Below are positions 4,618 through 58,211 of a stretch of 64,000 nucleotides of DNA, piece by piece. Numbering within the stretch: the stretch's first letter is position 1; every line of letters begins with the position of its first letter. A program made the translations under genes and the position numbers. This DNA comes from a virus (taxonomy: Duplodnaviria; Caudoviricetes), in IMG/VR virus record IMGVR_UViG_3300037067_015270, positions 1 through 64,000 of that record. The stretch is one strand, 5' to 3'. Below the pieces are notes generated by a model that was given only the letters and a program-made list of their open reading frames with translations, was not told the origin of the DNA and did not search any database.

Positions 4618-7600
4618 CTATGTCTCTGCGGTCAATATGCCATCCGTGAATGTCAACATCCTTGTTGGACTACCACCGCTTGAATCTGAGACATAATAGG
4701 TCTTAGTGCCAGATAATCCACCAGTTGGACCTGTAGCACCAGTTGGACCTGTAGCACCAACAGGTCCGGATGCACCACCAGTATCTCCCTGTGGACCAGT
4801 TGCACCAGATGCACCGCTAGCACCATCAATTCCAGTAGCGCCGGTTAAGCCAGTTGCCCCAGAAGCTCCATCAACACCTGTTGCACCAGAAGCTCCATCG
4901 ATCCCTATAGGACCAGTAGCACCTGAAGCACCATCAATCCCTGTTGCACCAGTTGATCCGACAGGTCCTGATGCACCACCAGTATCACCTTGGATGCCAG
5001 TTGCACCAGTTAAACCAGTAGCTCCATCAATTCCTGTGGCACCGGTAAAACCAGTAGCGCCAGATGCACCGCTAGCCCCATCAATCCCTGTAGATCCGAT
5101 TAAGCCAGTAGCACCAGTAGCCCCGGACGCTCCATCAATTCCAGTTGCCCCGGTTAAGCCAGTAGCACCAGAAGCGCCGCTAGCTCCATATGGACCAGAA
5201 GCACCACCAGTTTCACCCTGGATGCCGGTTGCACCAGTGAATCCTGTAGCACCAGATGCTCCGTCGATTCCGGTTGCACCGGTTAAGCCAGTATCACCAG
5301 TGAATCCAGTGAATCCTGTAGCACCAGATGCTCCGTCGATTCCGGTTGCACCGGTTAAGCCAGTACCAGTTGCACCGGTTAAACCCGTTGCTCCTGAAGC
5401 CCCATCAACACCAGTGGCACCAGAAGCACCACTAGCTCCGTCAATTCCAGTCGCACCAGTGCCCGTGGCACCAGTAAGACCGGTGGAACCAGTAAGACCG
5501 GTATAACCAGTGAAACCGGTAGCGCCTGTTAAGCCAGTACCGGTAGCACCAATTGCACCAGACGCTCCCTGAACGCCCGTCGCACCAGAAGCACCGCTAG
5601 CTCCATCAATCCCAGTGGCTCCGGACGCTCCGGTTAAACCTGAAGCTCCATCAATTCCGGTCGCACCAGAAGCTCCGGATGCTCCATCAATACCAGTCGC
5701 ACCAGTTAAACCAGACGCACCTTGAACACCTGTAGCACCAGAAGCTCCGGATGCTCCATCAATGCCGGTCGCGCCAGTTAAACCAGACGCACCAGTTAAA
5801 CCAGATGCCCCCTGGATACCTGTAGCCCCAGACGCACCAGTATCACCAGTAGCACCAACTGGACCACCGTAAGGACCAGACGCACCCGTTAAACCCGTTG
5901 AACCAGTTAAACCTGTTGCACCCACGCCTGTCGAACCCGTAGGACCCGTAGCACCTATACCACTAGCACCAGCAGAGCCACTAGCGCCAGCAGAGCCAGT
6001 AGCACCGGAAGCACCAGAGGCTCCAGAAGCACCATTTATAGCGAGCCCGGTTGCACCAGTAGAGCCACCGACACCCGTTGAACCGGTAGCCCCGGTAGGA
6101 CCACCAGCAGGGCCAGTAGCACCCGAGGCACCGATGACGCTTACTCCTGTGGCACCAGTGGAACCTGCAGCCCCAGCAGTACCCGTAGCACCAGACGCAC
6201 CAAGACCGGTTGCTCCAATAGGACCACCACTTGGACCAGTAGCACCTGCAATACCTGTCGACCCAGTCGAACCAGCAGTACCAGTCAAACCGGTAGCACC
6301 AGTATATCCTATACCTGTTGCACCTGTCGCACCACCAGCTCCTGTTGTACCAGCTATACCAGTTGAGCCCGTCGAACCTGTCGGGCCAGAGGCACCTCCT
6401 GTCGGGCCGGTCGCACCAGCAGGACCACTAGGGCCAGTAGCTCCATCACCAAGTGGGCCAGATGCGCCAGTAGCACCAGTGGGACCAATGGGACCTGACG
6501 CACCGCCTGTATCACCTTGCAAGCCAGTAGCACCGGATGCTCCAATACCTGTGGCACCAGTTAGACCAATGCCTGTTGAACCGGTAGCACCAATAGGACC
6601 ACCGGCAGGACCTGTAGCACCAGTTAGGCCAATGCCTGTTGAACCTGTGGAACCTGTTGGACCACCAGAAGGACCAGTTGCACCAGATAAACCAGTAGCA
6701 CCAGTAGAACCGGTGAGGCCAGTGCCAGTAGCACCTCTTGGACCGCTAATACCAGTAGCACCAGTAGCGCCAACAGGACCGCCAGAAGGACCTGTGGCAC
6801 CTGTTTCTCCCGTAGCACCAGAAGCACCAAGGCCGGTCGCTCCAACGGGGCCGACAGGTCCGGTAGGGCCCTCAGAACCAGTTGAACCAGTAGCACCAGT
6901 CGGGCCACCACTAGGGCCGGTTGCACCTACTACACCAGCTGGGCCAGTTGCACCGTAAACGCCAGTTGAAGACCAAGACAAGTTTCTTAATCCATCAGTA
7001 ACTAAAACTTGTCCGATTGTTCCGTCTATATTCGGGAACTTCAAATTACTAATAATGACGTTCTTACCAGTGCCCCAAGCTGCAAGTAATAAATCTTGAT
7101 TTGTAGCCGAGTGTATCGAGTCGGTTTGTAGCCCATTAACATCGCTATATGTTAAGCCGGAACTGTCGGTTAAACGTCCGTTCGTAGTAGCAAAAGGAAT
7201 TCTATTTGGCGTTAATTTTGTCCCATCGTTTAAAACAAATCCCTTCCTGGCACCATCAGTCGTAATAGTAAAATAAAGGTCGTCAACTTTGAATTCAGTA
7301 ACACCTGGTTCCGGAACAGCTAGGACATCGCCAGTAGTTAGTTTAAATGGTCCTTTTCCAGCCTCAGAAGAGCCAGCTGGGATGTGTAGTCTTGCTGTCG
7401 GATTGTATTCTCCGATACCGACTTGTTCACCGTCAATTATGGTACCACCATCTCTGATCAGTGTCGCAACGTTATAAAAGTTTGTTAAGCGATAGGCATC
7501 ATAAATCGGTACTCCGGCACTGTCTGTTAAAGTAACAGTGCCAAGCCATCTATGCCCCTTATAAACACCAGACGCGGTATAAACTGGCACGCCATCTAGT

Positions 7601-10600
7601 GTTGCCAAGCCATCAGAATCAACCAAAATCCAATAACCATCTGCTAAATCGTCAGCAAAAACGCCGCTGGTGTGGCTTACAACACAAGCATAAACATACG
7701 TATTGCTAACACGAAGCCCAATAGTATATGCTGTTGCAGTAGCCCACGTATCAATACGACTTTCAGATATTGGAGTCCACTCTACAAATTTAAGCTCTCC
7801 AATAGTAGCAAACCAATAAGTGTTGACGCCATATATGTGTTGATACGGCATCGTGCATGCAGTGACATCAATCCTGTAATAACGATATGCAATGGCATTA
7901 TTGAATGTGAAGTACTGCGACCACACGCCTACGCCCGCTGGCGGATCAATATCAGTGCGTGTATCCAGTATTGACCAGTTAATATTATCATTAGACCCAG
8001 ATAGTGTAAAGTCTCTTGGTAGAGATGGGTAGTATGTTTTAGCTTGGAATGCATATTTATTGATAGCCTTCTTATTAAGTGCACCAAAGTCATACACAAT
8101 CCACATAGGTGTTTGAAATGGATCACCTGGCGTATATGTTCCATCGCCAACTTGAACTCCCCAGCCCACATCACCTGCATTTTGACTGAATGCATACCAA
8201 CCATACATATAAACATCAGACACGCCATATAACACACCAATAGAACTCACTACCACAGCGTTTGGTATCGGTGTAGTAGCTGACGTCATCGCTGTTGTGC
8301 ATGTAGTCGTACCAACATTATATTGTCCGTCTGATGGTACAAACTTCCAAGGAGCGAATTCTACACCAAATGATGTTGCTGTTAGATAGTATCCAAAAAT
8401 GTCGTAAGTTCTATTAGCTATCAGAGGAGTAGAGTCCATGTCGTTAGTGATATTCGATATGGACGGTGCTGTTGCCACTCTTACGACTTCCCAAGCAGAA
8501 GTCGTACTATTGTAGAGTTGAATTTCATTAGATTGAACGAAATTCCAGTCTAAACTCGTGGAACTCGACACTATCAGATTTCCACCAACTACATCTGAAC
8601 TCAATATGCCCGCGCCATTATTAGCCCAAGAAAGATATCCAGCTCCATCAGTAACTAACACTTGCCCAGATACACCGCCAGTTCTTGGGAAATCGAGCGT
8701 ACCTAATGAAATGTTGCCTATGCTGCCTTGCTCTATAGTGATATTGCCATTACTCTGATCCATTTCTACTGAATTGTAGAAGTTACTAATTAAGGAGTCG
8801 CTAAAATTAATTGTTCCTCCTTCCAAGTATAACGACACCATACCAAGCCATCTGTAACCAGTATAATCGCCAGAATTAGCATAAATTGGCACTCCATCTA
8901 AAACACCGAGTGCACTTTGCTCAACTAATACCCACATACCGCTAGCTAAATCGGTGGCAAAATCATCAGAAGTGTGATTAGCTATGCAAGCATACATATC
9001 TGTGTTTAGTACCCTATCGCCTATACGATAATTCGTAGCAGTAAGCCAGTAACCAGCTCTGGAATTTGCTGGAAGACCTCGAACTAACTTTATTTCGTTA
9101 ATTTCTACATACATCTGACCAGATCCAGCGTCTGCAGGACAGTCAGTGATGAGTTTGTAATATCGATAAGCTACACCGTTATCGAACGTGTAATATGGGC
9201 TCCACGTTAAATCACCAGGTCCGGTTATGCTAGATCTCGCATCCAATAACGTGTAAGTAACGGCGTTATTTGACCCATATAGCTGGAATGCTGTAGGAAA
9301 TGCAGCATTGTCGTTTGCTTGCAAAGCGTACTTGTTTACGATTATCGGTATGTTGAAATCGTACTGTATCCATGCAGATGTAGCTAGTGGTATCGGCGTT
9401 GATGACCAATATCTGCTAATATCACCACTAAAAGCACCCCATGCCCCAAGGAATTCACTGCTCGCACTCACCTTTTGAGGCGCTGGAGCAATATCAGAAG
9501 TCATGGTTGTAGTGCATGTCGTAGTGCCAGTGTTGCTACCGCCATGAGTTGATACTATTTTCCAGGGAGCAAAAACCAAATCAAATGAAGTTAAAGTTGA
9601 ATTATATTGTGCAAATACATCATAAATTAAATCTTGTATCAGAGCGTTGCCGCACATATCAACAGACGCATTTGAAGCTGTCGGTTCTGTTGCAACATCA
9701 ATTATTACCCAGGCCGATACATCAGCATTATATAAACGTATATGATTCGATGCATAAAAGCTCCAAGCAAGAGTAATACCATCATCCGCATTTAATCGGC
9801 CACCAACAACATCACTACTCTCTCCTCCAGGTGCAATTACACTATTGACGTACTTGATGGTTGCAACATCATATAGAAGAGATGGAGTTGGTATATGATT
9901 GTTAATGAAATCGTTATCAGTGCCAAGGTCAACAACTGGTATCCTATATGTGTTATGGTTAATTCTATTATCTGTACAAGCAGCGTCTAAAGTAATAGAA
10001 GAACCAACAGCTCTCTCTACGATATCATTGATTTCTATTATATTGTTTTGGCAATTGACAAGCTTAATAGCATCAAGATTGTCAGATAATCTATTGTGAT
10101 GGACTATACTTCCAGTGGAATTTTGTAAATAGAAACCAACGTTATTAGATGTCGAATAACTTTCTACAATATTGCAATCTGTAGCATAAACTAGAGAAAA
10201 TCCGGTATTAGTGTTCGAAGTAACTGTATTGTCTTCTTCAACGTTTCCAGTTGAGTTATAAACACCAATACCATCTGCATTCCCTGTAACATCGTTGTGT
10301 TCGATATGATTATTATCAGATGAATCACGAACCAATATGCCAAATTCACTATTGCCTGTAGATGTATTGTTGGTTATTATGTTGTTTGAGCTACCAATTA
10401 ACTCAATACCTGTTTTATTACTAGAGCAATTGCAGCTATCAATAGTGTAAATATCGTCGACACCAGAACTGTCCAAAAGGATTCCAGATTGATTTGGTGC
10501 AACTGCGGATATATTGAATTGTCTAAATGACCCAGAGATAGCAGTGATATGAACTGTAGGGGTTACACCGTCGCCAGTGATTGTCGTAGTACCAGTATCA

Positions 10601-10800
10601 TCAGTGTAGATGCTCAGCACTTTAGTGATGACAATATTTTCACTATAAGTGCCAGGCTTAACGTAAATGACATCTTTTGCTACTGCGGCATCGATAGCAG
10701 CTTGAATTGTTGCGTATTCTGAGTCGGTCGCACCGACACTAATGGTGTAATCTGCCGACGCTTTAGTAACAACCCTATCAATATTGCTTAGTACCATCAT
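4618..10800 (-). CDS. 2060-aa fibre/adhesin: parallel beta-helix (NosD/pectate-lyase-like), two discoidin-like domains, two CBM5/12-like motifs, C-terminal collagen
   Basis: [11 protein letters not shown]...[10 protein letters not shown] plus GIxL..S.NN.I..N beta-helix repeats; WIQYDF...GSNN...W..LD.R...YRYY discoidin motifs; W..AT.Y.IG.RV...Y.C...HTS; about 750 aa of G-X-Y. Confidence 0.85.
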
Positions 10801-11563: not shown

Positions 11564-12007
11564 TTACTTACCTGGTACTGGTGCTGGGCAAGTCGGAGCT
11601 GCGGCAGGGGCACAAGCAGCGGGAGCACAAGCAGCGGGAGCACAGGCACCCACTTCTTTGTGACGGCGCTGTGCAACCTTGCGTACTACCTTCACAATCT
11701 TGTGTTCCCTAGCTACCTTCGCAACCTTTTCGCACGCTGGAATAGCAGGTGCACAAGCGGCGGGAATAGCCGGAGCACATGTAGCCGGTGCGCAAGCGGC
11801 AGGAGCACAAGCATTAGCCTTACGCTTCTCTGCTCTTGCTTTGCGTGCGTCATGGCGTGCTTCATGTACCTTCACAACCGTAGCCACGATTTGGCGAACT
11901 GGTCGAATCGCATATTCGCGAGTCGTCTCAGTAGCACATGCGGGGGCACATGCTTCCGGTGTGCAAGGACCACCAAGAACCATCGAGATCAAAATAGCAC
12001 TGAACAT
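11564..12007 (-). CDS. Secreted Cys/Ala/Pro-rich protein with ACAPA repeats
   Basis: GGAGG RBS before ATG 12007; hydrophobic N-terminus MFSAILISMVLGG; repeated ACAPA units. Confidence 0.7.
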   Translation of the reverse strand: MFSAILISMVLGGPCTPEACAPACATETTREYAIRPVRQIVATVVKVHEARHDARKARAEKRKANACAPAACAPATCAPAIPAACAPAIPACEKVAKVAREHKIVKVVRKVAQRRHKEVGACAPAACAPAACAPAAAPTCPAPVPGK

Positions 12008-12144
12008 GTTATTCCTCCAAAGGTTACAACAAAAAATCGACCAACTACCATTAAAATACACAACGGCCTTGTGTACAATAATATACTATTTTTGTCAGGA
12101 CCTTCCATCAATTCAGAAATTACCTTTCGGTATTGTAAATCGCA

Positions 12145-13892: not shown

Positions 13893-13928
13893 CCTGTAGC
13901 CACCTGGAAACAAGCAACGCGACAATAA
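13893..13928 (-). CRISPR. orphan degenerate CRISPR repeat
   Basis: CCTGTAGCCACCTGGAAAC matches array repeat CCTGTAGTCACCTGGAAAC at 18/19 positions. Confidence 0.75.
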
Positions 13929-13951: not shown

Positions 13952-14479
13952 CTAAGCCATTTGCGGCCTTCTTTTCTTGAGCAGATCTCGTAAGTGATCG
14001 TTTTCGGCTTCGAGTTGTTTGATTCTTTCCATTAGTTCGTCAATAATAGCACTCATTCGTGCCTTTTCGCGACGAGCTACAGCATATGGATCTTCTCGTT
14101 TCTTTGGTGTTGTCGGCTGAGCGTTTTCAGCTTTGCTTGCTCTATTCTTGGCCTCATTATCGTCTAAGACCCTTTGTAACATTTGATATAACTTACCATT
14201 TGCCCATTGTTCCTCGTCCGGGAAATGGTCTAGAACAAGCTTCAATTCATAGAATGTTGCACAAAGGTCGTCGACGTATTCGTCAAGAATACTGAGCAAC
14301 TTATCGTCGTCGAACATGTTGTGATCGCTTCGAAAATCCTGATCATGGTAGACCTTCGTGAGCAACGTAATACGATGGTAAGCGTTACTGCCGCTCTGCT
14401 GTCGAAGTTCCTTGGCTTCCAACAATAAGCTTTTGTATGTCTTCGCGGACTCTTGATTCGTCTGTTTTGTCGATTTCAT
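13952..14479 (-). CDS. hypothetical coiled-coil protein downstream of CRISPR array 1
   Basis: 175-aa ORF with GGAG RBS. Confidence 0.7.
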   Translation of the reverse strand: MKSTKQTNQESAKTYKSLLLEAKELRQQSGSNAYHRITLLTKVYHDQDFRSDHNMFDDDKLLSILDEYVDDLCATFYELKLVLDHFPDEEQWANGKLYQMLQRVLDDNEAKNRASKAENAQPTTPKKREDPYAVARREKARMSAIIDELMERIKQLEAENDHLRDLLKKRRPQMA

Positions 14480-14630
14480 TAATAGTTCTCCTCAATCGTT
14501 TGTGGAAACCAGATAAATGGTAACATTCTCTACTACAATACTTCTGTTTGCCAGTCAATGGCATCTTACATATTGGACACAATTTACCTGAACGGGCAGC
14601 CATTTCTTCTGGCTCATATTCTGTAGTCAC
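14385..14630 (-). CDS. possible small Zn-ribbon protein
   Basis: CPIC...KYCSREC motif, but it overlaps the next gene by ~95 nt and its GTG start lies in a repeat fragment. Confidence 0.35.
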   Translation of the reverse strand: MTTEYEPEEMAARSGKLCPICKMPLTGKQKYCSRECYHLSGFHKRLRRTINEIDKTDESRVREDIQKLIVGSQGTSTAERQ

Positions 14631-14633
14631 CTG

Positions 14634-15145
14634 CCTGTAGTCACCTGGAAACGAACGCTATTTAACATTTCGCGTGTTTCTCGTCGTGTCCTGTAGTCAC
14701 CTGGGAACGAACGCTATTTAACATTCTAGCAGCCGAACAGAAATCCTGTAATCACCTGGGAACGAACGCAAATCGACACTGCTCTGTAGTCGATATTCAA
14801 TATTGACCAAGACCCCGAATTGCTGTATGGGAATAATCCCTGTAGTCACCTGGAAACGAACGCTATTTAACTTCAACCGGAAAACCGCAAGCGTTTTCGG
14901 CCTGTAGTCACCTGGAAACGAACGCTATTTAACATTTCAAAAAGACGACAGCGGTTTTTCCCGACCCTGTAGTCACCTGGAAACGAACGCTATTTAACAT
15001 TTGTCCTCTGGGAACGAACGCTATTTAACATTTCGCGTGTTTCTCGTTGTGTCCTGTAGTCACCTGGAAATGAACGCTATTTAACATTTGTTGCATCGCT
15101 CGTGTTTCTCCTGTAGTCACCTGGAAACGAACGCTATTTAACATT
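14634..15145 (-). CRISPR. CRISPR array 1 (36-nt repeat; 8 full-length copies, one degenerate, plus fragments)
   Basis: Plus-strand repeat CCTGTAGTCACCTGGAAACGAACGCTATTTAACATT at 14634, 14690, 14745 (degenerate), 14839, 14901, 14966, 15053 and 15110, with partial copies at ~14784 and ~15008. Clean spacers are 19-29 nt. The array starts 11 nt after the stop codon of the 401-aa gene. Confidence 0.95.
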
Positions 15146-15156
15146 ACGCTGATGGG

Positions 15157-16362
15157 TTATCCAGCCATCCTCTTACGCTTACACTCGCCGACACGCCGAA
15201 CAACAACATCAATATCGACCTTGTTGCAAGCCTTTTGAATCAGCGAACTCATTTGTTGCCAATCCCATCGAGTTGATTCCATATCGCAATCACGTACACG
15301 ACCGATTTTTTCCATGCATCGGTCGTCGCGTGTATCGCCAACAGGCTCAAATACCACAAGCCGACCTATACCTGCAAGACGGAGCCGCCTGACCATTTCG
15401 TTGGCGAGATGGATATTCCACGTCTTGACGAAATCTCGCCATCGCCGCGTCAACTTCTCTCGGCTACTGATCGCGACTTTCCGCTTCCTTTTGCCAGCAT
15501 TACAGACACGCTGGATTGTTAGAGACTTGCGAGTATAACCAATATCGTTACCACGGCGCAAACGAGTACTCGTTCTGCCATTAATGCGAAACAAAATCGG
15601 ACGTGCGAATCCGCCAGACAAGAAAGCCGTCTTATTCTTGTCGATTGGTAGCTTTACCTTTGGGATAGAATGGCAAATCTGAGCATACCATTTGCCGTCG
15701 CGTTCGAGTAAATCGACGCCCTTGATATCCCATTCTTTGGCAGCAATCTTCCAAAGCATATCACGAATGGAATGAAGACGATAATCTTTGGTCTTGATTT
15801 TGAAGACCATCACGGTATCATCTAGACACGCCTGTAACTTCCAATCACCATCGTCTGCGTCAGGTATGATGATGTGGCAGTCGCTTGTGTAAAACGGAAT
15901 TATACCGCGTTTAGAAGATTGTGGCAATTCACCAAGTCCGGATAGAACAATCATCCATCGAGGATAGGCCGACTTGATGCCGGACTTCCTGATCAGATTC
16001 TTCATCGCCTTGTTGATTGCCAATTGAATCTGCTTCGTGTCGTAGTCGGGATGCGATTCGGCGATAATGGCACGAAGCCGGTCGTTCATTTCAGGGCTAC
16101 ATGGATCGACAGGACATCGGGTACGGGGACCGACCCGACTGGCCGGGTCATATAACCATTGTCTATCGTGCGCCATCCATTCTCGGACGACCAAATGGTT
16201 GCCTGCTTCATAATGAAGACGGAGCCAAGTAGCTGCGAAATCATTCGTGCACTGCTGGATTTTGGTGGCGAGAGTAGACAGAAGCTTCTTTTCTGCTGCG
16301 AAGTCTCCGTCGCTACCAATTAAGTCAACCCTTTTGTTCTTGACGATTCGTTGTAATCCCAT
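15157..16362 (-). CDS. cas12f: Cas12f-like (type V-F/TnpB family) effector, predicted nuclease-dead, 401 aa
   Basis: Motifs IIPFY, LWKIAAKEWDIKGVDLL..GKWYAQICH, KTAFLSGG (RuvC-I Asp replaced by S249), GRLVVFEP, WDWQQM..LIQKAC. Ends before the Zn finger and RuvC-III. Flanked by an array and a tracrRNA-like gene. Confidence 0.85.
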   Translation of the reverse strand: MGLQRIVKNKRVDLIGSDGDFAAEKKLLSTLATKIQQCTNDFAATWLRLHYEAGNHLVVREWMAHDRQWLYDPASRVGPRTRCPVDPCSPEMNDRLRAIIAESHPDYDTKQIQLAINKAMKNLIRKSGIKSAYPRWMIVLSGLGELPQSSKRGIIPFYTSDCHIIIPDADDGDWKLQACLDDTVMVFKIKTKDYRLHSIRDMLWKIAAKEWDIKGVDLLERDGKWYAQICHSIPKVKLPIDKNKTAFLSGGFARPILFRINGRTSTRLRRGNDIGYTRKSLTIQRVCNAGKRKRKVAISSREKLTRRWRDFVKTWNIHLANEMVRRLRLAGIGRLVVFEPVGDTRDDRCMEKIGRVRDCDMESTRWDWQQMSSLIQKACNKVDIDVVVRRVGECKRKRMAG

Positions 16363-16374
16363 CTAGCTCTCTCC

Positions 16375-16473
16375 AAAATAAAGGTGACTCTGGCGAGGGC
16401 TAACACGGTACGAAATGCCCGCAGCTATTCTCGCCTTCGAGACGTACAGGACGCCTCTGGTTGAGTCTTGTTT
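16375..16473 (-). ncRNA. tracrRNA-like RNA, copy 1
   Basis: One of three near-identical elements. Upstream -10 TACAAT (16477-16482), hairpin with a CCUGU loop, GGCGAG/CUCGCC stem, 3' AGUCACCU then a U-run. Both anti-repeat parts are complementary to the repeat 3' end AGGUGACUACAGG. Confidence 0.8.
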
Positions 16474-16508
16474 CATATTGTAGTACGAAAAAGGAATTGG
16501 TTAATTGC

Positions 16509-16704
16509 CCTGTAATCGTTGCACAACGCCCTGTAATCACCTGGGAACAAGCAGAAGAACGAGGCCCTGTAGTCACATGGGAACGAGAGGTACTCTCCAT
16601 TTTCGACTTTTATTCGTGTAAGGTTCAAGTTCTGTAGTCACCTTGGAACGAACGGTACTCTCTATTAGACTCGACAAGAACGTATCGATGCCGCTCCTGT
16701 AGTC
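16509..16704 (-). CRISPR. degenerate mini-array downstream of tracrRNA copy 2
   Basis: Repeat variants at 16509 (fragment), 16530, 16566, 16631 and 16696 (3' 9 nt only); two 29-nt spacers (16602-16630, 16667-16695). Confidence 0.75.
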
Positions 16705-16797
16705 AGGTGACTCTGGCGAGGGCTAACACGGTATGCTAGATCCGCAGCTATTCTCGCCTTCGAGACGTACAGGACGCCTCTGATTGAGTCTTGTTTC
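16667..16797 (-). ncRNA. tracrRNA copy 2 fused to a repeat end and spacer (natural sgRNA candidate)
   Basis: Minus strand reads ...CTCGCCAG-AGTC-ACCT-GACT-ACAGG-[29-nt spacer]; own GTGCTACAAT promoter at 16801-16810. Confidence 0.7.
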
Positions 16798-16857
16798 ATA
16801 ATTGTAGCACGAGTTAACTTGCTGATATTCTTCCCGTCTGATACTTTCCGGAAACTT

Positions 16858-16989
16858 CCTATAATCACCTGGAAACGAGCGCTTGCTTGTGTGTTCGATG
16901 TCCTGTAGCCACCTGGGAACGAACGCTATTCTCCATCAGTTAAACAATTTACATTACGCTGGTAGGTCTATTTGGCCTGTAATCACCTA
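16858..16989 (-). CRISPR. degenerate repeats downstream of the 431-aa gene
   Basis: CCTATAATCACCTGGAAACG (16858), CCTGTAGCCACCTGGGAACGAACGCTATT (16902), CCTGTAATCACCTAG (16976), and a leader-like ACATTACGCTG at ~16951. Confidence 0.65.
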
Positions 16990-16992
16990 GTT

Positions 16993-18288
16993 CTATGCCG
17001 CTTTCAACTTCTTCTTCCGTTCACCAATCTTCCTGACCGTGACCTCGATACCAACAGCCTTGCAGGCTTGTTGTAATAAAAGCTGCATCTGATACCAGTC
17101 CCATCCGGTCGATTCCCTGAGTCCAGGAATCTTCCCAATTTTGGACAGGCATCTCGAATCACGCAAGTCCCCAGCGGGCTGATACACAACGACACGACCT
17201 GTCTTGGATTTGATACACCGTTGCACAACTTCTGCGGCCCATCGGCTATTGGTCGTCTTGACCATATCACGCCATTTCATCCTAATCTTATCGCGCCACT
17301 GTATCGACTTCCTACCGTGTCCTTTCCTGGCACTCGATGCGTATTTGTACGATTCATTCTTACCAAAACGTTGGTTAGTGAGCGACTGCCGTACACGTTC
17401 AATCTGCTTGCCATCGAGGAGGCTCATTAAGGTCCTATCACCGATTCGCAGCATCATACCATTGTGGTATCCCGCAGACACGAAAGCCGTCTTCATGCCG
17501 TCTAACACTGGCTTCTCGACATTTGTAATCTTGTAGCAAATATGGGCATACCACCGACCGTCACGAAGAACGAGTGAAGAAGTGTTAAAAATCCACTCTC
17601 CGGACGCAATCTTCCACAAAGCCTCGCGGATGGTCTTCAAATTGCGACCACCTGTTCGCATCTTGAAGACCATTGGACGTAACGTACGCGTTCCAATCCT
17701 CTTCTCGAAGCGAACTTCCAATTTCCATGGGTCTTTGATGGTCTTCGGAATTATGACGCTGGCGTTCGAAGTATAGAACGGAACCGGCGCTTGTTTTTGT
17801 GCTTGTGGGAATTCACCAAATCCGGAAAGAATCGTCATCCATCGCTTGTAAGCCGATTTCGACGATGGCATCTGAGTGAGAGTCTTCGCGGCAATTTGTG
17901 TGACGATACCGATTGGCTTCGTTCCGAGATTACCATGTTCCTCAGTCAGCAACTTGTAAAGCTGTCTCGACATTGCTGGATCACACGGATTGACAGGGCA
18001 TTTAATACGCGGCGGTGCTCCCTTCTTGCCTTTATAGGCTTTCGCCCATTCCTTATCCTTCTCGATCCATTCTCGAACGGCCAGATGATTTCCGGCTTGC
18101 TGATGCAACCGTAGCCATTGATTGGCGTAATCGTTCACAATCTGTTGCATTTGGATTGCTAATCCGGCGAGACATTTTTTATCTGCTGCGAAGTTGTCAT
18201 CACTACCGGTCAATTCAACGCGAATGATCTTCGTGATGCCATCGGGCTTCTTTTTACGTGGTTTCTTCGCTTCAACTAATTCACTCAT
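16993..18288 (-). CDS. cas12f: Cas12f-like effector, predicted nuclease-dead, 431 aa
   Basis: Colinear with Cas12f1-type motifs: IASGEW...WYAHICY, LDGMKTAFVSAG (D to S271), DGKQIERVRQ..KYASSARKGHGRK, KTTNSRWAAEVV, GRVVVYQP (no RuvC-II Glu), WDWYQMQ..ACKAVGIEV. No CxxC Zn finger or third catalytic Asp. Confidence 0.9.
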   Translation of the reverse strand: MSELVEAKKPRKKKPDGITKIIRVELTGSDDNFAADKKCLAGLAIQMQQIVNDYANQWLRLHQQAGNHLAVREWIEKDKEWAKAYKGKKGAPPRIKCPVNPCDPAMSRQLYKLLTEEHGNLGTKPIGIVTQIAAKTLTQMPSSKSAYKRWMTILSGFGEFPQAQKQAPVPFYTSNASVIIPKTIKDPWKLEVRFEKRIGTRTLRPMVFKMRTGGRNLKTIREALWKIASGEWIFNTSSLVLRDGRWYAHICYKITNVEKPVLDGMKTAFVSAGYHNGMMLRIGDRTLMSLLDGKQIERVRQSLTNQRFGKNESYKYASSARKGHGRKSIQWRDKIRMKWRDMVKTTNSRWAAEVVQRCIKSKTGRVVVYQPAGDLRDSRCLSKIGKIPGLRESTGWDWYQMQLLLQQACKAVGIEVTVRKIGERKKKLKAA

Positions 18289-18333
18289 TTCGTCTCCAAA
18301 ATCACTTTGGACGGTTATCCTCTATAATCATAT

Positions 18334-18428
18334 AAATAAAAGGTGACTCTGGCGAGGGCTAACACGGTATGCTAGATCCGCAGCTATTCTCGCCTTCGAG
18401 ACGTACAGGACGCCTCTGATTGAGTCTT
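18334..18428 (-). ncRNA. tracrRNA-like RNA, copy 3
   Basis: Same element as copies 1 and 2; TGTGCTACAAT extended -10 at 18433-18443; ends AGTCACCTTTTATTT. Confidence 0.8.
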
Positions 18429-18486
18429 CATAATTGTAGCACAAAAAAGGAATTGGTTAACTGGAATTCAATCTATTCATCGAGCC

Positions 18487-18990
18487 TCTGCAGTCACCTG
18501 GGAACGAACGCCATTTACAACCTTTCCGAGAACGAATCGACGATGCCCTGTAGTCCTGTAGTTACCTGGAACGAACACTATTCGGCTTACTTGATACTCG
18601 ATTGGGCAAGCCCTGTAGTCACCTGAGAACGAACACTATTTAACATTCTACTCACCTGTAGTCGCCTGGGAACGAGTGCTATTCAATATTTGGAATAGTT
18701 ACATTTGTAACGGTCTTAGCCCTGTAGTCACCTGGGAACGAGTGCTATTCAACATTTTGAACTAAAATGAACGATTTAGACAGTCTCCTGTAGTCACCTG
18801 GGAACGAGTGCTATTCAACATTCGCCGTGTTCTCCTGTAGTCACCTGGGAACGAGTGCTATTCAACATTCGCCTTTGCAGTTTAGCGCCCCTGTAGTCAC
18901 CTGGGAACGAGTGCTATTCAACATTCGATATCCGCATGACCCTTAAGTACGGCACCTGTAGTCACCTGGGAACGAGTGCTATTCAACATT
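18487..18990 (-). CRISPR. CRISPR array 2 (36-nt repeat; 7 good and 2-3 degenerate copies)
   Basis: CCTGTAGTCACCTGGGAACGAGTGCTATTCAACATT at 18721, 18787, 18834, 18890 and 18955, with variants at 18655, 18612, 18555 and 18487. Spacers are 29, 20, 11, 30, 30 and 7 nt from the leader end. Degeneration increases leftward, so the leader is on the right. Confidence 0.95.
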
Positions 18991-19095
18991 ACGCCAATGG
19001 GTGGTGTGTTGAATAGCACTCTGATTTGTTATAGCACAACAACGATGCTTATTAATTTAACAGGATATTAATTCTGTCCGGTGTCGTGCTATAAT
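18991..19095. promoter_or_regulatory. array-2 leader with anti-repeat and divergent extended -10 promoters
   Basis: TGTTGAATAGCACTC (19007-19021) is the reverse complement of repeat nt 20-34. Minus-strand TGTGCTATAAC at ~19027-19037; plus-strand GTGCTATAAT at 19086-19095. Confidence 0.65.
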
Positions 19096-36670: not shown

Positions 36671-36739
36671 AGAAATCTCCTTTTCGTATAATTTTGATTA
36701 ACAGAAATCCTGCAATCACCTAGTTATAAATACAATATC

Positions 36740-37222
36740 TCAGGCAGACTCTAATTCCATGTAGTAGGCAGAATGGTCTGGTGCATAATAGTTGCGAACC
36801 ACATTTTTCGCAACAAAACCATTACTACGTAGAAATAATTGTGCTGGTAGATTCCGTTCACTGATATGAACAGAAATATAATCTTTCTTTTCCAAGTTGA
36901 GCTTTATCTTTAGCATATCAATAATGAGAGATGCTATTTTTCGCCTTCTGTGATAACGCTCAACTGCAAGATTACATAATTCTATATGGTCTTGATGATA
37001 CTTTATTATGACGTACGCAGCAATAAAACCATCATGCTCCACAACATAACACTTGTCTCCACATAATGTGGAATGAAAATCGAAGCTGCTGTGTTCTATG
37101 GCTGTGATTTGTTCAAAATCACGTTTAGAAACAAAGCGAATATTGGCTGGTATTGAGTGTGTGAGATTTTTATATCTTAAGAAATAAACTTGACTAGCAT
37201 CTCGCATAAGCTCTTTATTCAT
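36740..37222 (-). CDS. RimI-like GNAT acetyltransferase
   Basis: IEHSSF...NLAVERYHRRRKIA...SERNLPAQLFLRSNGF...RNYY..DHSAYYM. Confidence 0.75.
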   Translation of the reverse strand: MNKELMRDASQVYFLRYKNLTHSIPANIRFVSKRDFEQITAIEHSSFDFHSTLCGDKCYVVEHDGFIAAYVIIKYHQDHIELCNLAVERYHRRRKIASLIIDMLKIKLNLEKKDYISVHISERNLPAQLFLRSNGFVAKNVVRNYYAPDHSAYYMELESA

Positions 37223-40709: not shown

Positions 40710-43106
40710 ATGCTAATAGACAGACTTACAGGCGAATTAGCCAATCAATTTATAGATTGCAATTTACCTATATCAGAAAAGCATTTTGTTGAAGTATCAT
40801 GCTCTTGTGGCACTATAGTAAAGTTAAGCACAAGAGCTCTATCGCGAAAATGGGGAGCTAAAGGTTATTATTTGTGTAAAAGCTGTTCTGTTAAATCATA
40901 CATAGACAATCCAGAGCGTCTTGAAAAATGGCAGCAGTCGTTTACAAAGACCGCAGCGACATTAGAGCATAAGGCAAGATGTTCCAAAGCAGCAAAAAAA
41001 CTATGGAATACTCCTGAATTGCGGCAACGAGTAACAGAATCAGTTAGGCAAGATAATAAGACTAACCCCAAGAAAGCTACATCAAGAGCAATCGCACTAA
41101 AGGCACTAAAGGATAAGTCTTGGTTTAAAGATCACATGGCCAAGATAAGAATACTGGCACATAGAGCTATTAAGATAAGCCTAGATAATGATTCTGATAA
41201 ATGGCGAGATCTAGCTAAAAACTTTCACTTTGAACGACCAGAGGTAAAAGAAAAACACAAAGCATCAGCGAATAATGGAAATAAAAGACAACAAAGACAG
41301 CAAATTATATGTAGAAGTTATGAAGAGTTAGACGACGACATTAAGAATAGTAGCGACTACCAAAATAATATTATTACTATTCTTGACCACGAAAGACGTA
41401 AAGCAGAATTAGCATCTATACAAATTCCGCCAAAGCGTAAAAGAGCTAAACATAACAGTATAGAGCATAAGACGAAATTGTCAGAAGCATCGAAAATACG
41501 ATGGAAAAACGAGGAATATAGAGCCAAGATAAGAAATATTGTTAATAGTGAAAAGTATAAGACAAAGATGGCAGAATATCGCGATACCGAATATAGAGAA
41601 AGAATGAGATTTGTGGCTATAGCTCAATGGAGTGATCCTCTTTACTTAGAAAAAATGAGGAAATTATGGGAAGATCGAGAATATAAAGAAATGATGAGAA
41701 CTATATCAAAAGCGCAATGGGAGGATAAAGAATATAGAGAGAAAATGATATCTATTTTTAATAGTGAAGAATATAGAGAGAAAATTAAAATTGTTTGGAA
41801 TGACCCAACCTACAGAGAGAAAATAATAACTGCAATTAAATCGCAATGGAATAATCCAGAATATAGAAAGAAAATAAAAGCAATACAAAATGACCCAGCT
41901 TTCAAGAAAAAAGTAGCATCTGCAGCCAAAGTGCAATGGAAGAATCCAGAATATAGAAAGAAGATGCATCAGATATTTTCTTCTCCTGAAATCAGAGAGA
42001 AAATATCTGATGCATCTAAGATACGATGGGAAAAAAAAGAATTTAGAGAAAAAATAGAAGCAATAGTCAAATTACAATGGTCGAATAAAAAACGATTAGA
42101 AAAAGCATCCATAAACTCTAAGATACTATGGCAAAATGAAGAATATAAAGATAGACATAAGAAAGCTATGGCTTCTCCTGAGGTCAGAGAAAAACAGGCT
42201 ATAGCCAGGGCTGCACAATCAGGACAGATTTCATCCATACAAAAAACACTATATTCTTATTTGGATGGACTTAAAGTAGAATACTATAAAGAAAGCGAGC
42301 AAACGCGAGTCGGATTTTATGTTTTTGATTGTTTGGTTGTCAATGGTGATAAAAAATTATTGATTGAATGCCAAGGAGACTATTGGCATTCATTAGAAAA
42401 TGCAGAACGAAATGATCGGTCTAAATTTACTTATATTTCTAGATATTTCCCAGAATACGAAATAATGTATGTCTGGGAGCACGAATTTTATTGTAAAGAT
42501 AGAGTATTAGATCGGTTAAAATTGAAATTGGGAATTGATATAGATACTGTCGATTTTAATTTTTCCGATTTAACAATAAGAGAAATTAATAGCACAGAAA
42601 CCAAAACGTTCTTAGATCTTTATCATTATCTAGGTAAAGATCGCGGCGGTAAAACAATAGGTGTCTTCAATGGTGACTTGTTAATCGCTGCTATTGTTTT
42701 TAGTCCTCCACTACGGCAAAATACAGCTGGTCAATTCGATTTGGCTGATGATGAAGTCAGAGAATTATCTAGATTATGTATACATCCTTCCTATCACAAG
42801 AAGAACTTCGCTAGTTGGTTTATCAAACGAGCACTTAAACTGACAGATTGTAAGCTTGTTGTAGCTTATGCCGATACAACTGTTGGACATGATGGTGGAA
42901 TTTACAAAGCAAGCAATTTTAAGTTACATCACACTGTACCAGCAGACTACTGGTATGTAGACAATTCTGGCTATGTGATGCACAAAAGAACACTCTACGG
43001 GCGTGCAGTAAAACAGAAAATGACAGAATCAGAGTTTGCAGAAGCAAAAGGTTATATCCGTAAATATGGTGGTGAAAAATTATGTTTTGTATATAATCAA
43101 AAATAA
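40710..43106 (+). CDS. 798-aa fusion: Zn ribbon, W..xEYR.K helical repeats (NUMOD3-like), Vsr/DUF559 endonuclease, Mom-like GNAT
   Basis: FYVFDC...LIECQGDYWH...NDRSK...VWE; FLDLYHYLG...ELSRLC...SWFI...VVAYADTTVGHDGGIYKASNF. Confidence 0.75.
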   Translation: MLIDRLTGELANQFIDCNLPISEKHFVEVSCSCGTIVKLSTRALSRKWGAKGYYLCKSCSVKSYIDNPERLEKWQQSFTKTAATLEHKARCSKAAKKLWNTPELRQRVTESVRQDNKTNPKKATSRAIALKALKDKSWFKDHMAKIRILAHRAIKISLDNDSDKWRDLAKNFHFERPEVKEKHKASANNGNKRQQRQQIICRSYEELDDDIKNSSDYQNNIITILDHERRKAELASIQIPPKRKRAKHNSIEHKTKLSEASKIRWKNEEYRAKIRNIVNSEKYKTKMAEYRDTEYRERMRFVAIAQWSDPLYLEKMRKLWEDREYKEMMRTISKAQWEDKEYREKMISIFNSEEYREKIKIVWNDPTYREKIITAIKSQWNNPEYRKKIKAIQNDPAFKKKVASAAKVQWKNPEYRKKMHQIFSSPEIREKISDASKIRWEKKEFREKIEAIVKLQWSNKKRLEKASINSKILWQNEEYKDRHKKAMASPEVREKQAIARAAQSGQISSIQKTLYSYLDGLKVEYYKESEQTRVGFYVFDCLVVNGDKKLLIECQGDYWHSLENAERNDRSKFTYISRYFPEYEIMYVWEHEFYCKDRVLDRLKLKLGIDIDTVDFNFSDLTIREINSTETKTFLDLYHYLGKDRGGKTIGVFNGDLLIAAIVFSPPLRQNTAGQFDLADDEVRELSRLCIHPSYHKKNFASWFIKRALKLTDCKLVVAYADTTVGHDGGIYKASNFKLHHTVPADYWYVDNSGYVMHKRTLYGRAVKQKMTESEFAEAKGYIRKYGGEKLCFVYNQK

Positions 43107-56422: not shown

Positions 56423-56740
56423 CTACACAGACTTTCTAAGATACTTATAGTAGATAATCATCGTTAACCATATAGTATTGGCGACGGCTAATACGAATCC
56501 ACCGATAAAAGAAATAAATTGCCCGAGATATGAGTAATAATACAAATTCCAATATCCCCAAACAACGAAGAATGATATAGCAGGCCAAGAAATACCTTTT
56601 ACTGCTTTGTCTTTATAAAGAGTTTGAATATGCAAGAACACAAACCAACCACCAAGAAACTCAAACAATCCATTAATTATATCTGGCACTCTAGACTTTC
56701 CTATGACATATTGTCTGCTTAGTATAATACTCTGGATCAC
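56423..56740 (-). CDS. PQ-loop/SemiSWEET-like 3-TM membrane protein
   Basis: LYKDKAVKGISW...WG.WNLYYY; three hydrophobic helices; true start probably GTG ~56689. Confidence 0.55.
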   Translation of the reverse strand: MIQSIILSRQYVIGKSRVPDIINGLFEFLGGWFVFLHIQTLYKDKAVKGISWPAISFFVVWGYWNLYYYSYLGQFISFIGGFVLAVANTIWLTMIIYYKYLRKSV

Positions 56741-58211
56741 GCCATTTAGCTTTCATTGCACAGCTATGGCAGCGGTATGGAAGCTTCAGTGATTTTCTCT
56801 TAATGCGTTTCTTAGTACCGCACTCACATATCACATCGACATATTCTTCCATATTAGTGTCTATTCTTTTCGGCTTATTTTTATATATGCCGTTTTCCCA
56901 ACATTTCGAAATACTGCAAGAGTGGCATATATATGCGCCATGACGTTGTACAGATTTTGCTAATGCTTTCTTAGAAACGAGAAATTCGCAACCACATTTT
57001 GAACATACAGTGCTGAATTGTGTGATTTTCTCGACAACTTGCACATCTGTTTTACGCATCCAGAATATGAATCTATTTTTAGGTTCTGTGTCGACACGCG
57101 CCAAATTACGCTGTTCTGCATATTTTTTCTCTGTCAACCCAAATTTTCTAGAATAATCCCACACTACCTTTTTATGAATCAAACCCCCATTTACATCTCT
57201 ATAATAGTAACTAGGCTTTGTCTTTCCATCACAAATCCAGTTACTAGCTGTATAAATTGTACCATCATGCCCAAAATGTGTATCGGCAAAAGAAACAACC
57301 AATGATATTTCTGGTTTATTTATTTTAAGCATCTTCAAGCATCGACTTATTGTCCAGCTCGCCAAATTTTTAACGTGATATGAATCATGTAATACAAATC
57401 TGGATAATTCGACCACTTTAGATGCCGGAACACCATGTCTGTTAACGACCGAATTATAGCTTGGTTGCGCAAATATCGCAGCCCCGATTAATTTAATATT
57501 ATGATATAGCCCGATACATATCTTTGTGTTTTTACGAAAGTTCGGCAGATAATGATAACTGTTTAAAAATTCAATGGCTGTATCTTGCTTGATAATATCT
57601 AACCTCAACTCACTAAAATTCACATCTATTGTTTCGATTTCAATGCCAATAATTGATCGAATGATAGACGCAATACATCCCTTTGATATTGTATCGCATT
57701 CTTGTATATATCTTAATTGCAGATCTTGATAGTTATGCTCAATAAAAGACGCCTTTGATAAATCATTAGCAATATTATTTGGTAGTGAGTGCCAATACTC
57801 ACCTTGCACTTCTAATAATATTTTAAAATCAGGCAAATAAAAGTCGAATGTATAAGGACCAAAAACTTGTTGTTTTATGAATCTTACTTTGATCGAATCC
57901 AATACTGCTGCTACCGCTAGCTCTGGCTTAGTATCATATTTTTTAATTTGTGCTGGTAGCTCACCAGATTTTCTTCTTTTAGCAACGTTTAAAGCATTTT
58001 CACGTGCTCTAGATTTATGCAACTCAGAATTAAAATATACGGAGCGTTTTGCTTTAGCTGAATCCGTTTGTAGCCTATCGACTTTCTTGGAAGCGGCCAC
58101 CATGGCTGGGGTGGGATTTTTACATCGTTCCTTGATATATCTAGATATTTTACAAGCTAAACAATCTGGATCAGACCCTTTTATGTGACCGTATTTACAA
58201 TACTTTGACAT
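56691..58211 (-). CDS. 506-aa Vsr/DUF559 endonuclease and Mom-like GNAT fusion with Zn ribbons
   Basis: DTKPE...YTFDFYL...LEVQGEYWH...ND..K; FLNSYHYL...ELSRF...SWTI...VVSFADTHFGHDGTIYTASNW; CxxC motifs. Confidence 0.75.
   Translation of the reverse strand: MSKYCKYGHIKGSDPDCLACKISRYIKERCKNPTPAMVAASKKVDRLQTDSAKAKRSVYFNSELHKSRARENALNVAKRRKSGELPAQIKKYDTKPELAVAAVLDSIKVRFIKQQVFGPYTFDFYLPDFKILLEVQGEYWHSLPNNIANDLSKASFIEHNYQDLQLRYIQECDTISKGCIASIIRSIIGIEIETIDVNFSELRLDIIKQDTAIEFLNSYHYLPNFRKNTKICIGLYHNIKLIGAAIFAQPSYNSVVNRHGVPASKVVELSRFVLHDSYHVKNLASWTISRCLKMLKINKPEISLVVSFADTHFGHDGTIYTASNWICDGKTKPSYYYRDVNGGLIHKKVVWDYSRKFGLTEKKYAEQRNLARVDTEPKNRFIFWMRKTDVQVVEKITQFSTVCSKCGCEFLVSKKALAKSVQRHGAYICHSCSISKCWENGIYKNKPKRIDTNMEEYVDVICECGTKKRIKRKSLKLPYRCHSCAMKAKWRDPEYYTKQTICHRKV

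Follow-up and report, generated by a model that had tools for sequence, protein, structure and literature searches.

The window, a 64,000-nt stretch of viral DNA (positions 1 to 64,000 of IMG/VR record IMGVR_UViG_3300037067_015270), carries a dCas12f-CRISPR locus at 14631-18995 on the minus strand, with two paralogous effector genes, three tracrRNA genes and four repeat arrays. In the reading we favour, at a probability of about 0.55, a jumbo phage carries a pared-down CRISPR system without adaptation genes, derived from type V-F, in which a nuclease-dead and truncated Cas12f would bind DNA and keep its targets from being transcribed or replicated.

Organization of the locus and its phage setting

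As the preliminary description had stated, ORFs of 401 and 431 aa stand in tandem together with tracrRNA-like genes and repeat arrays, and all of these elements, every array included, lie on the minus strand. The two proteins are 44% identical to each other (E = 4e-118), and each effector gene is preceded by a tracrRNA gene of ~95 nt with its own predicted promoter. In descending order of coordinates, the features are as follows.

18484-18995, minus strand: CRISPR array 3, with 10 repeat copies, the distal ones degenerate; a conserved leader-repeat junction lies ahead of it; spacers of 8-31 nt
18433-18460, minus strand: predicted sigma-70-like promoter of tracrRNA copy 3 (TTAACC-16-TACAAT plus a TG extension), conserved in copy 1
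18328-18432, minus strand: tracrRNA copy 3 (~95-nt element at 18341-18436), with two stem-loops, an anti-repeat 3' tail and a U-run; ends ~40 nt before the 431-aa start codon
16993-18288, minus strand: dCas12f paralogue A, 431 aa, with the whole WED-REC-RuvC fold, S271 at RuvC-I and most likely Q370 at RuvC-II, without zinc finger or RuvC-III
16855-16943, minus strand: mini-array of 2 repeat copies just past the paralogue A stop codon, with the same leader junction as array 3
16692-16800, minus strand: tracrRNA copy 2 (~95-nt element at 16705-16800), without a U-run; its tail continues directly into a repeat's final 9 nt and a spacer-like stretch
16527-16670, minus strand: mini-array of 3 degenerate repeats
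16477-16504, minus strand: predicted sigma-70-like promoter of tracrRNA copy 1 (TTAACC-16-TACAAT)
16369-16473, minus strand: tracrRNA copy 1 (~95-nt element at 16382-16477), ending ~20 nt before the 401-aa start codon
15157-16362, minus strand: dCas12f paralogue B, 401 aa, with Ser at RuvC-I
14631-15152, minus strand: CRISPR array 1, with 9 repeat copies, starting 5 nt past the paralogue B stop codon; spacers of 20-35 nt, two of them near-identical
13893-13911, minus strand: lone 3' end of a repeat, with 1 mismatch over 15 nt, located 9 nt ahead of the ATG of the next downstream gene; its membership in the system is uncertain

The locus is set in an IMG/VR viral contig of 122.5 kb. Since this contig is rated 34% complete at that length, a tail-fibre gene lies at 4618-10800 of the window, and the same gene pair is also found in a complete relative of 363,885 bp, the jumbo phage proposed in the preliminary description is supported.

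Effector fold and loss of the nuclease site

A phmmer search against the PDB found AsCas12f at 9e-11. The family profile matched AsCas12f at E = 1.7e-31 (positions 113-413) and the sigmaE-system dCas12f at E = 1.2e-8 (13% identity), and the PADLOC Cas12f and Cas12u3 profiles matched at 1e-22. AF2 models of the two proteins had pLDDT values of 86 and 88, and Foldseek returned matches at E = 1e-20 with TM values of 0.61-0.64. In the comparison with AsCas12f that had been called for, VIA-align gave Z 24.4 for the 431-aa model (rmsd 4.4, 335 residues aligned) and Z 21.3 for the 401-aa model (rmsd 6.6, 312 aligned). The 431-aa model matched dCas12f 9n9c, whose entire 365-residue chain was aligned, at Z 24.5; AsCas12f and 9n9c therefore tie as its best structural match (Z 24.4-24.5), and TnpB is farther away (Z ~17 vs Z 24 for Cas12f). 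With sequence homology over the WED-REC-RuvC core and a Cas12f/TnpB fold predicted for both proteins (Z 21-24), their description as Cas12f-derived effectors is borne out. Assignment to TldR was rejected because the nearest relatives are Cas12f rather than TnpB, the scaffold is encoded 5' of the gene and the locus has arrays.

The replacement of the RuvC-I Asp by Ser, noticed earlier in both proteins, holds: in the HMMER alignment, S271 of the 431-aa protein stands opposite the Asp of AsCas12f (FVSAG vs GIDLG), and among 157 relatives the commonest residues in this column are R, S, V, H, T, W, I, F and L, none being Asp. The aromatic residue that had been placed at the RuvC-II Glu position is off by one, as it precedes Q370 in the 431-aa and E339 in the 401-aa protein, which by this alignment most likely face the Glu. 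Q occupies the RuvC-II column in 116/157 relatives, followed by a near-invariant Pro, and E339 is not conserved, being Q or A in its orthologues. The C-terminal truncation was confirmed as well. Residues 18-428 of the 431-aa model align to AsCas12f 1-381 of 422, the PADLOC Cas12f profiles matched only up to position ~340 of 398, no CxxC occurs in the C-terminal tail of any of the 157 relatives, and the proteins gave no match to Pfam Cas12f1-like_TNB. Since the chain stops where AsCas12f ~381 of 422 aligns, the zinc finger (TNB domain) and RuvC-III are absent. The D-E-D triad is accordingly not intact, with Ser at RuvC-I, Gln (431-aa) or a non-conserved Glu (401-aa) at RuvC-II and no RuvC-III region, and the 157 aligned relatives display the same loss of the nuclease site. 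The effectors most likely bind DNA without cutting it.

It is very unlikely that the system is nonetheless effectively a nuclease, in that a recruited nuclease or an unrecognised active site damages the target once the complex has found it, or that the target is RNA. Binding-only Cas12 modules are indeed tied to other enzymes, as with Cas12k and transposases or the Cas12m-Cas3 association (PMC10910872), and a WDW motif contains a mostly conserved Asp (109/157 relatives). However, this Asp is Pro in 26 relatives, the common RuvC-I residues include no acidic one, and no conserved neighbour gene was seen across the phage loci.

The family comprises 212 clusters at 50% identity, and its truncated architecture is common to more than 150 diverged clusters. 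Against their orthologues in the 364-kb relative, the two paralogues gave dN/dS values of 0.089 and 0.093, so that by this sequence comparison both are under strong purifying selection. Together with the family-wide conservation, this supports the earlier argument for selection instead of decay; a ratio near 1, which had been named as the mark of pseudogenes, was not seen. One of the nearest ESM-Atlas clusters is for the most part Bacteroidota, and a profile search of genome contigs with the protein alignment matched only two small MAG contigs.

tracrRNAs, repeats and spacers

Comparative evidence establishes the tracrRNA as real. It lies directly upstream (5') of the effector gene in 26/26 loci with upstream DNA present; in a covariance-model alignment of 31 copies, 98.3% of cells are paired, and compensatory changes occur in 11/19 pairs, a level reached in 0/500 shuffles, with slid controls far lower. 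Its 3' tail and first-hairpin loop co-vary with the repeat 3' end across 7 repeat classes, and out of 5040 permutations of the tracrRNA-repeat assignment the cognate one comes out best. In every repeat, the final 13-15 nt pair with the tail (8-11 bp) and the first-hairpin loop (5 bp), and cofolding predicts an 8-bp duplex between tail and repeat; arrays and a tracrRNA with anti-repeat pairing, as expected of Cas12f, are thus both present. Because the repeat 3' end pairs with the tail and hairpin loop, the guide falls on the 3' side of the scaffold, the arrangement also seen in Cas12f and TnpB. A single chimeric guide without tracrRNA does not describe this locus, where the scaffold RNA is encoded apart from the arrays and base-pairs with their repeats. 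Only copy 2 looks fused, and from its sequence this copy, with the repeat end and spacer-like stretch that follow, may be a natural fused guide.

A dead Cas12f with a tracrRNA could instead sequester host type V-F crRNAs or poison Cas12f dimers and so shield the phage, as proposed for a phage Cas9 of impaired nuclease activity whose tracrRNA corresponds to host repeats (PMC10910872). Since Cas12f functions as a dimer, a dead subunit could be dominant-negative, and the locus is without adaptation genes. We consider such anti-CRISPR mimicry quite unlikely, however, as the phage family has arrays of its own, in which leader junctions are conserved and the spacers are diverse and 29-32 nt long, and the phage's tracrRNA and repeats co-vary with each other.

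The repeats measure 35-36 nt in all four arrays, in line with the preliminary description, but the picture of the arrays needs correction: the spacers are irregular (8-35 nt) and include two near-duplicates, unlike the regular 29-32 nt of relatives. Since several spacers have 8-12 nt, too short to guide alone, and distal repeats are degenerate, part of the locus may be decaying. That the whole is a functionless remnant of a formerly active phage type V-F system is hardly credible. The irregular spacers, degenerate distal repeats and truncated mini-arrays of the window would fit such a remnant, whereas the dN/dS of ~0.09 for both paralogues, a truncated architecture shared across the diverged clusters, a tracrRNA conserved through compensatory changes and a gene pair intact in three phage genomes all argue against it.

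The lack of cas1, cas2 and cas4 noticed in the window extends to the 122.5-kb contig and the complete 364-kb relative. The spacers would have had to be acquired in trans or inherited. Their irregular and partly duplicated state suggests that the arrays here now change by recombination rather than adaptation. No protospacers, and hence no PAM or target class, were found in the phage's own contig, the complete relative, related loci or isolated phage genomes, and self-targets did not exceed chance level. As none lies in the phage genome, the targets would most likely be host genes or competing mobile elements. Since no spacer target was found, the repression or activation of host or competitor genes put forward earlier is something we infer as plausible.

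Mode of action and relation to known systems

Under the favoured reading, the ribonucleoprotein would probably be dimeric, in this phage possibly a heterodimer of both paralogues. It would bind complementary DNA beside a PAM, remain there and block transcription or replication in a CRISPRi-like manner. Missing from paralogue B are the basic N-terminal tail, the conserved ...YxxASSARKGHGR motif and a portion of a WED hairpin; as modelled, it adopts a conformation similar to that of the second protomer in Cas12f dimers. The conserved pair may form a heterodimer. As a counterpoint to the repressor reading, the closest solved nuclease-dead relative is an activator that works with a sigma factor.

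An activator, in which dCas12f and its guide recruit a host or phage sigma factor and RNA polymerase to guide-specified sites like the Bacteroidota dCas12f-sigmaE, is unlikely here. The joint best match of the 431-aa model to the full sigmaE-system chain points towards it. So do two chromosomal relatives, 35% identical to the 401-aa protein, which lie directly downstream of an ECF-type sigma-70 gene and possess a scaffold RNA and no array; this sigma-linked clade is nested among array-linked phage members, and weak sigma-like matches occur elsewhere in the phage. These matches, however, lie far from the locus and under Pfam cut-offs, and neither the window nor any of 29 surveyed array-type loci has a sigma gene next to the effectors, the operonic rpoE being present only in the two chromosomal relatives. 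In addition, multi-spacer arrays and a separate tracrRNA are kept, in contrast to the single chimeric guides of sigmaE-linked dCas12f (PMC13472631).

Beyond the blocking reading, we tentatively entertain a wider proposal that falls well short of probable. The large, mostly-phage clade of tracrRNA-dependent, adaptation-less dCas12f would be the array-linked stock that gave rise, one or more times, to sigma-coupled RNA-guided transcription. Within this lineage of jumbo phages, duplication would have turned the effector into an obligate heterodimer, with the 431-aa protein as the target-engaging protomer of the asymmetric Cas12f dimer and its trimmed 401-aa partner in the scaffold-only position, acting as a multi-guide natural CRISPRi that reprograms host or rival-phage transcription.

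C-terminally truncated dCas12f, including a CRISPR-linked cluster, has already been published (Hoffmann et al., Nature 2026, PMC13472631); with such a cluster known beside CRISPR arrays and 9n9c tying as the best structural match, the novelty claimed in the preliminary description was overstated. The rpoE-dcas12f systems of Bacteroidota (PMC13472631; PDB 9n9c, 9n9m) share with the present proteins the features that define dCas12f, namely a retained Cas12f fold, substitutions that inactivate RuvC, and a truncated C-terminus with which part of the active site is lost. They also have the guide 3' of a structured scaffold, and the family here contains a sigma-linked subclade. The present locus differs in being phage-borne and in having multi-spacer arrays with a separate tracrRNA and two tandem paralogues, whereas for rpoE-dcas12f tracrRNA-like species were not found and the guides are single chimeras of scaffold and 14-16-nt guide (PMC13472631). 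Those systems have an operonic ECF-type sigma gene (rpoE), often with an HTH gene, and neither is adjacent here. The CRISPR-linked dCas12f cluster (Hoffmann et al.; Chitinophagaceae MAG example) may overlap with the family described here, given the nearby ESM-Atlas cluster made up mostly of Bacteroidota, the two being compared by description only. It, too, is nuclease-dead and truncated, has a conserved structured RNA ahead of the gene, and is proposed to act as a repressor. In contrast to the phage locus, it is bacterial, known bioinformatically only, and has a target upstream of an efflux operon; phage association, tracrRNA-repeat pairing and a paralogue pair were not reported for it.

By sequence, the closest system is AsCas12f of type V-F1 (formerly V-U3), with shared domain order, size, tracrRNA dependence and 36-nt repeats, but AsCas12f has an intact triad, a zinc finger and DNA cleavage, and the proteins here stop ~40 residues earlier. 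TldR, Cas12m and sigmaE-linked dCas12f, named earlier as analogues, were apt choices. In Cas12m (type V-M), type IV-A and Cas12k, too, an RNA guide directs DNA binding while the target stays uncut, whether to counter mobile elements or in recruitment; they come from separate lineages, either Cas12 or class 1. The RuvC site of Cas12m is modified but retained, and this effector matures its crRNA by itself, with no tracrRNA. TldR, including the prophage fliC-associated form, is also phage-carried and nuclease-dead with a C-terminally truncated RuvC, and its guide-RNA-directed DNA binding represses host genes (bioRxiv 10.1101/2023.11.30.569447); it descends directly from TnpB, however, and has one omega-type guide beside the gene, without CRISPR array or tracrRNA. 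The phage dead Cas9 with tracrRNA ('biomimicry' anti-CRISPR; Altae-Tran et al. 2023, PMC10910872) is similarly an impaired phage-encoded Cas effector, but it has no arrays and its tracrRNA fits host repeats, whereas here the phage's own arrays co-vary with its own tracrRNA. What is new here is the phage carriage, the dual-RNA format, the conserved paralogue pair and a sigma-linked branch lying inside the family, and the locus represents a dual-RNA form, carried by a phage, of the dCas12f regulators published recently.

Cas12f ancestry and loss of the nuclease

The 431-aa and 401-aa proteins are 44% identical to each other; neither had a match in Pfam or NCBIfam, and PHROGs returned only matches with E > 0.01. 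Plain phmmer against the PDB matched AsCas12f, an active type V-F effector, at E 9e-11, a profile built from 24 relatives matched it at 1.7e-31 over positions 113-413, and the PADLOC Cas12f and Cas12u3 profiles matched at 1e-22, reaching only profile position ~340 of 398. AlphaFold2 models of the two paralogues (pLDDT 86 and 88) matched Cas12f structures along their whole length (Foldseek E 1e-20, TM 0.61-0.64), and the 431-aa model gave Z scores of 24.4 to AsCas12f and 24.5 to 9n9c, the solved nuclease-dead dCas12f of sigmaE systems (VIA-align). The derivation from Cas12f, proposed in the preliminary description from the order of motifs, is borne out by these comparisons.

The 431-aa model stops opposite residue ~381 of the 422 residues of AsCas12f and covers dCas12f 9n9c over all 365 residues, indicating that the zinc-finger (TNB) domain and RuvC-III are absent, as they are from published dCas12f. 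[quoted passage not shown] In the HMMER alignment, S271 of the 431-aa protein faces the RuvC-I Asp of AsCas12f and Q370 most likely faces its RuvC-II Glu. Hence the Ser at RuvC-I was read correctly in the preliminary description, and its RuvC-II position was placed one residue too early. The 401-aa protein has a Glu at the RuvC-II position, which is not conserved, since its orthologues carry Gln or Ala. Across the 157 clusters, the commonest residues in the RuvC-I column were R, S, V and H, with no Asp among those listed, and RuvC-II was Q in 116 of 157, followed by Pro in 150 of 157. The reading of both proteins as nuclease-dead Cas12f derivatives is supported by the structural comparison. 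They have been maintained by selection rather than left to decay, as had been argued from the two intact genes: compared with the orthologues in the 364-kb relative, the 431-aa and 401-aa types have dN/dS values of 0.089 and 0.093, far from the value near 1 that would indicate pseudogenes.

The locus and its dual-RNA elements

The window covers the initial 64 kb of an IMG/VR viral contig of 122,508 bp, for which CheckV estimates 34% completeness, and the same locus is found in a related 363,885-bp contig rated 100% complete; 'jumbo phage' is therefore a fair description. Every part of the CRISPR locus lies on the minus strand, as listed here.

Parts of the CRISPR locus in order of transcription (window positions)
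18995-18484 (-), array 3
18432-18328 (-), tracr copy 3
18288-16993 (-), 431-aa gene
16943-16855 (-), two-repeat mini-array
16800-16692 (-), tracr copy 2
16670-16527 (-), three-repeat degenerate mini-array
16473-16369 (-), tracr copy 1
16362-15157 (-), 401-aa gene
15152-14631 (-), array 1

The repeats are 35-36 nt long, with the final 19 nt as the conserved portion, and a short leader-repeat junction is identical at the start of each array. The absence of cas1, cas2 and cas4 from the window holds more widely, as no match to Cas1, Cas2 or Cas4 was obtained in the 122,508-bp contig, the complete 364-kb relative or three further relatives. No sigma factor, HTH or nuclease partner was found among the genes neighbouring the window's locus.

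An 81-aa Zn-ribbon ORF (14385-14630, -; CPxC...CSxxC) has its start within the final repeat of array 1 and shares sequence with the beginning of ORF 13952-14479, and perhaps only one of the two is real. It was considered as a carrier of the missing zinc finger and RuvC-III in trans and rejected: its zf-C6H2 match was weak and below cut-off, and no RuvC-III-like motif was seen. The ORF at 11564-12061 (-), full of repeated Cys-Ala-Pro-Ala units and overlapping ORFs on the opposite strand, may be a low-complexity repeat region and not a gene. Other window genes encode a collagen-like tail fibre of 2,060 aa and Mom-like DNA-modification functions. Two large proteins (40710-43106, +; 56691-58211, -) each match both Mom-like DNA-modification and HNH/homing-endonuclease PHROGs, suggesting that this phage hypermodifies DNA. 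Beyond the window (119992-120066, -, of the contig), a conserved ORF of ~350 aa gives a weak, below-cut-off Sigma70_r2 match in this contig and likewise in the related jumbo-phage contigs G001 and G002, and may encode a divergent phage sigma factor.

The scaffold element of ~95 nt consists of two stem-loops and a U-run, and matched no Rfam family. A sigma-70-like promoter (TTAACC-16-TACAAT) is predicted from sequence at tracr copies 1 and 3; copy 2 lacks the U-run and runs on into the repeat's last 9 nt and a spacer-like stretch. With nhmmer and a covariance model, the scaffold RNA was located directly 5' of the dCas12f gene on the same strand in 26/26 loci with upstream DNA, including loci whose proteins are just 27-34% identical to the window's paralogues. 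In a 31-copy alignment, which was fitted to the covariance model and is biased toward the structure, pairing holds in 98.3% of cells, and both partners change in 11 of 19 pairs. None of 500 shuffles reached these values, and structures slid by 1-3 columns gave 33-51% pairing. The compensatory stem was already present in an independent MAFFT/RNAalifold run.

The 3' tail of the tracrRNA pairs with the repeat, an 8-bp duplex being predicted by cofolding, and the loop of the first hairpin pairs with the repeat's last 5 nt. Covariation between loci is seen in each of these helices: the tail/repeat pairing is GGTGACT/AGTCACC in the window, GGTAACT/AGTTACC in the family loci L004, L008 and L037, and GGCAAGT/ACTTGCC in L006, with further combinations in L007, L010, L044, L045 and L047, among them a change of the loop pairing from CCUGU/ACAGG to UUGGA/UCCAA. 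When all 5040 permutations of tracr and repeat were compared for seven repeat classes, the lowest summed duplex energy belonged to the cognate assignment; as related sequences share labels, this is a measure of maintained complementarity, not of seven independent events. Judged by this complementarity, the locus encodes a true dual-RNA system in which the guide is predicted to lie 3' of the scaffold. The observation of two nuclease-dead Cas12f paralogs accompanied by tracrRNAs and arrays is confirmed.

Arrays and the search for targets

The arrays of relatives are regular, with a period of 65-67 and spacers of 29-32 nt, indicating that spacers once entered by ordinary acquisition, presumably in trans. 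Spacers in the window range from 8 to 35 nt and include two near-duplicates, and identical 30-nt spacers occur within one array in L008 (three copies, 9249-9482) and L037 (two copies, 5270-5431). This irregularity and duplication points to arrays that are now changing by recombination. Repeated identical spacers of the kind in L008 and L037 are unusual for adaptation-built arrays.

Several spacers start with a duplicate of the repeat's last 8 nt (ACTACAGG); this slip recurs at repeat-spacer junctions and is seen in L004 (3311, 3903, 7342-7478), in the window (18554) and in G001 (197819). Orphan repeat 3' ends were also found outside arrays, in the window at 13893-13911 (-) and 36700-36740 (-) and in G001 at 197819, 137404-137466 and 9943; five had at most 2 mismatches in 15 nt, against roughly 0.7 expected. 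Two orphan ends lie 8-9 nt ahead of the ATG of the gene immediately downstream of the locus. The one at 36709 precedes a small gene by 38 nt, and the 9 nt that follow it are identical to the start of one array-1 spacer.

The 122.5-kb contig and the complete 364-kb relative were searched with 16-nt spacer prefixes (up to 2 mismatches) and for longest exact matches; the 12-15 nt matches obtained did not exceed chance level, the best being a 13-nt prefix match at 87578. Spacer 10-mers were not enriched in the phage genomes, and 107 spacers from 29 loci matched nothing in all the DNA collected beyond the arrays themselves. When the locus and two regular arrays were compared by BLAST with 50,697 genomes of isolated phages, no credible protospacer emerged, the sole matches being 28/31 nt in Gordonia phage tail genes (E 0.3), and an exact scan of IMG/VR with one window spacer gave no match. 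On these searches, self-regulation by full-length guides is unlikely. We infer that the targets would be host or competitor genes, as initially proposed; if they are host promoters or rival phages, the system would add a new mode to the conflicts between phage and host or between phages.

The wider family and known dCas12f systems

In an exhaustive HMMER search with clustering at 50% identity, the family comprised 212 clusters at E <= 1e-3 and 154 clusters at E <= 1e-10, with lengths almost always of 400-490 aa. Wherever the gene neighbourhood was legible it was phage or prophage-like in character, encoding integrase, ParB, terminase and numerous small ORFs. Viral sequences make up 78% and 64% of the closest ESM-Atlas clusters. 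A single conserved motif, scanned once against species-representative prokaryote genomes, matched only two small MAG contigs; a broad 60-sequence alignment contained no stretch conserved enough as a metagenome-scan motif. The locus suggests that a large, mostly viral family of at least 212 clusters retains the dCas12f design in the ancestral CRISPR format of tracrRNA and multi-spacer arrays, and that programmable DNA binders are routinely carried by phages.

The 431-aa/401-aa pair is conserved in three phage genomes and forms one 16-leaf clade (support 0.99) with the 401-aa type sister to the 431-aa type. The 401-aa type lacks the N-terminal basic tail, part of a WED hairpin and the family's conserved ...YxxASSARKGHGR motif. 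The 431-aa AlphaFold2 model fits the A chains of Cas12f dimers best, at rmsd 4-5 compared with 16 for B chains, and the best matches of the 401-aa model were the B chains in nine of the listed Cas12f dimer entries (rmsd 6.6-8.2; A chains 13.5-14.1). These predicted conformations, the only basis for the idea, hint that each paralogue may have become specialised for one position of the asymmetric Cas12f dimer, and the pair offers a test case for whether the asymmetric Cas12f homodimer is able to become a heterodimer through evolution. Being small (~400 aa), predicted to be bind-only and guided by dual RNA, the effectors could serve as compact CRISPRi or base-editor scaffolds.

One family cluster, 35% identical to the 401-aa protein, is chromosomal in bacteria, where it directly follows an ECF-type sigma-70 gene, with the scaffold RNA present and the CRISPR array absent.

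Sigma-linked chromosomal loci
L030, 8791-11341 (1.7-Mb chromosome)
L031, 8783-11248 (0.6-Mb chromosome)

One member of this cluster comes from a Bryobacteraceae MAG, outside Bacteroidota. In a FastTree phylogeny of 182 members, midpoint-rooted, built from a fast alignment of family members only, without an active-Cas12f outgroup, and used solely for nesting, the sigma-linked clade is nested among array-linked members. The branching of this form from within an array-bearing family would provide a concrete evolutionary intermediate.

A role as transcription regulators has been recognised only lately for naturally nuclease-dead RNA-guided proteins (TldR, dCas12f-sigmaE, Cas12m). C-terminally truncated dCas12f recruits sigmaE for RNA-guided transcription, and CRISPR-linked dCas12f, possibly acting as a repressor, is mentioned as a "distinct cluster" (Hoffmann et al., Nature 2026, PMC13472631); this kind of system is therefore already known. 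In that report no tracrRNA is given for sigmaE-type dCas12f and phages are not mentioned. A phage-borne, tracrRNA-dependent, array-bearing dCas12f seems undescribed in the literature searched, which did not include Al-Shayeb et al. 2022. The truncated, nuclease-dead design is shared with the dCas12f of Hoffmann et al.; carriage by a phage, the tracrRNA and the arrays set the window's system apart from their sigmaE-linked type.
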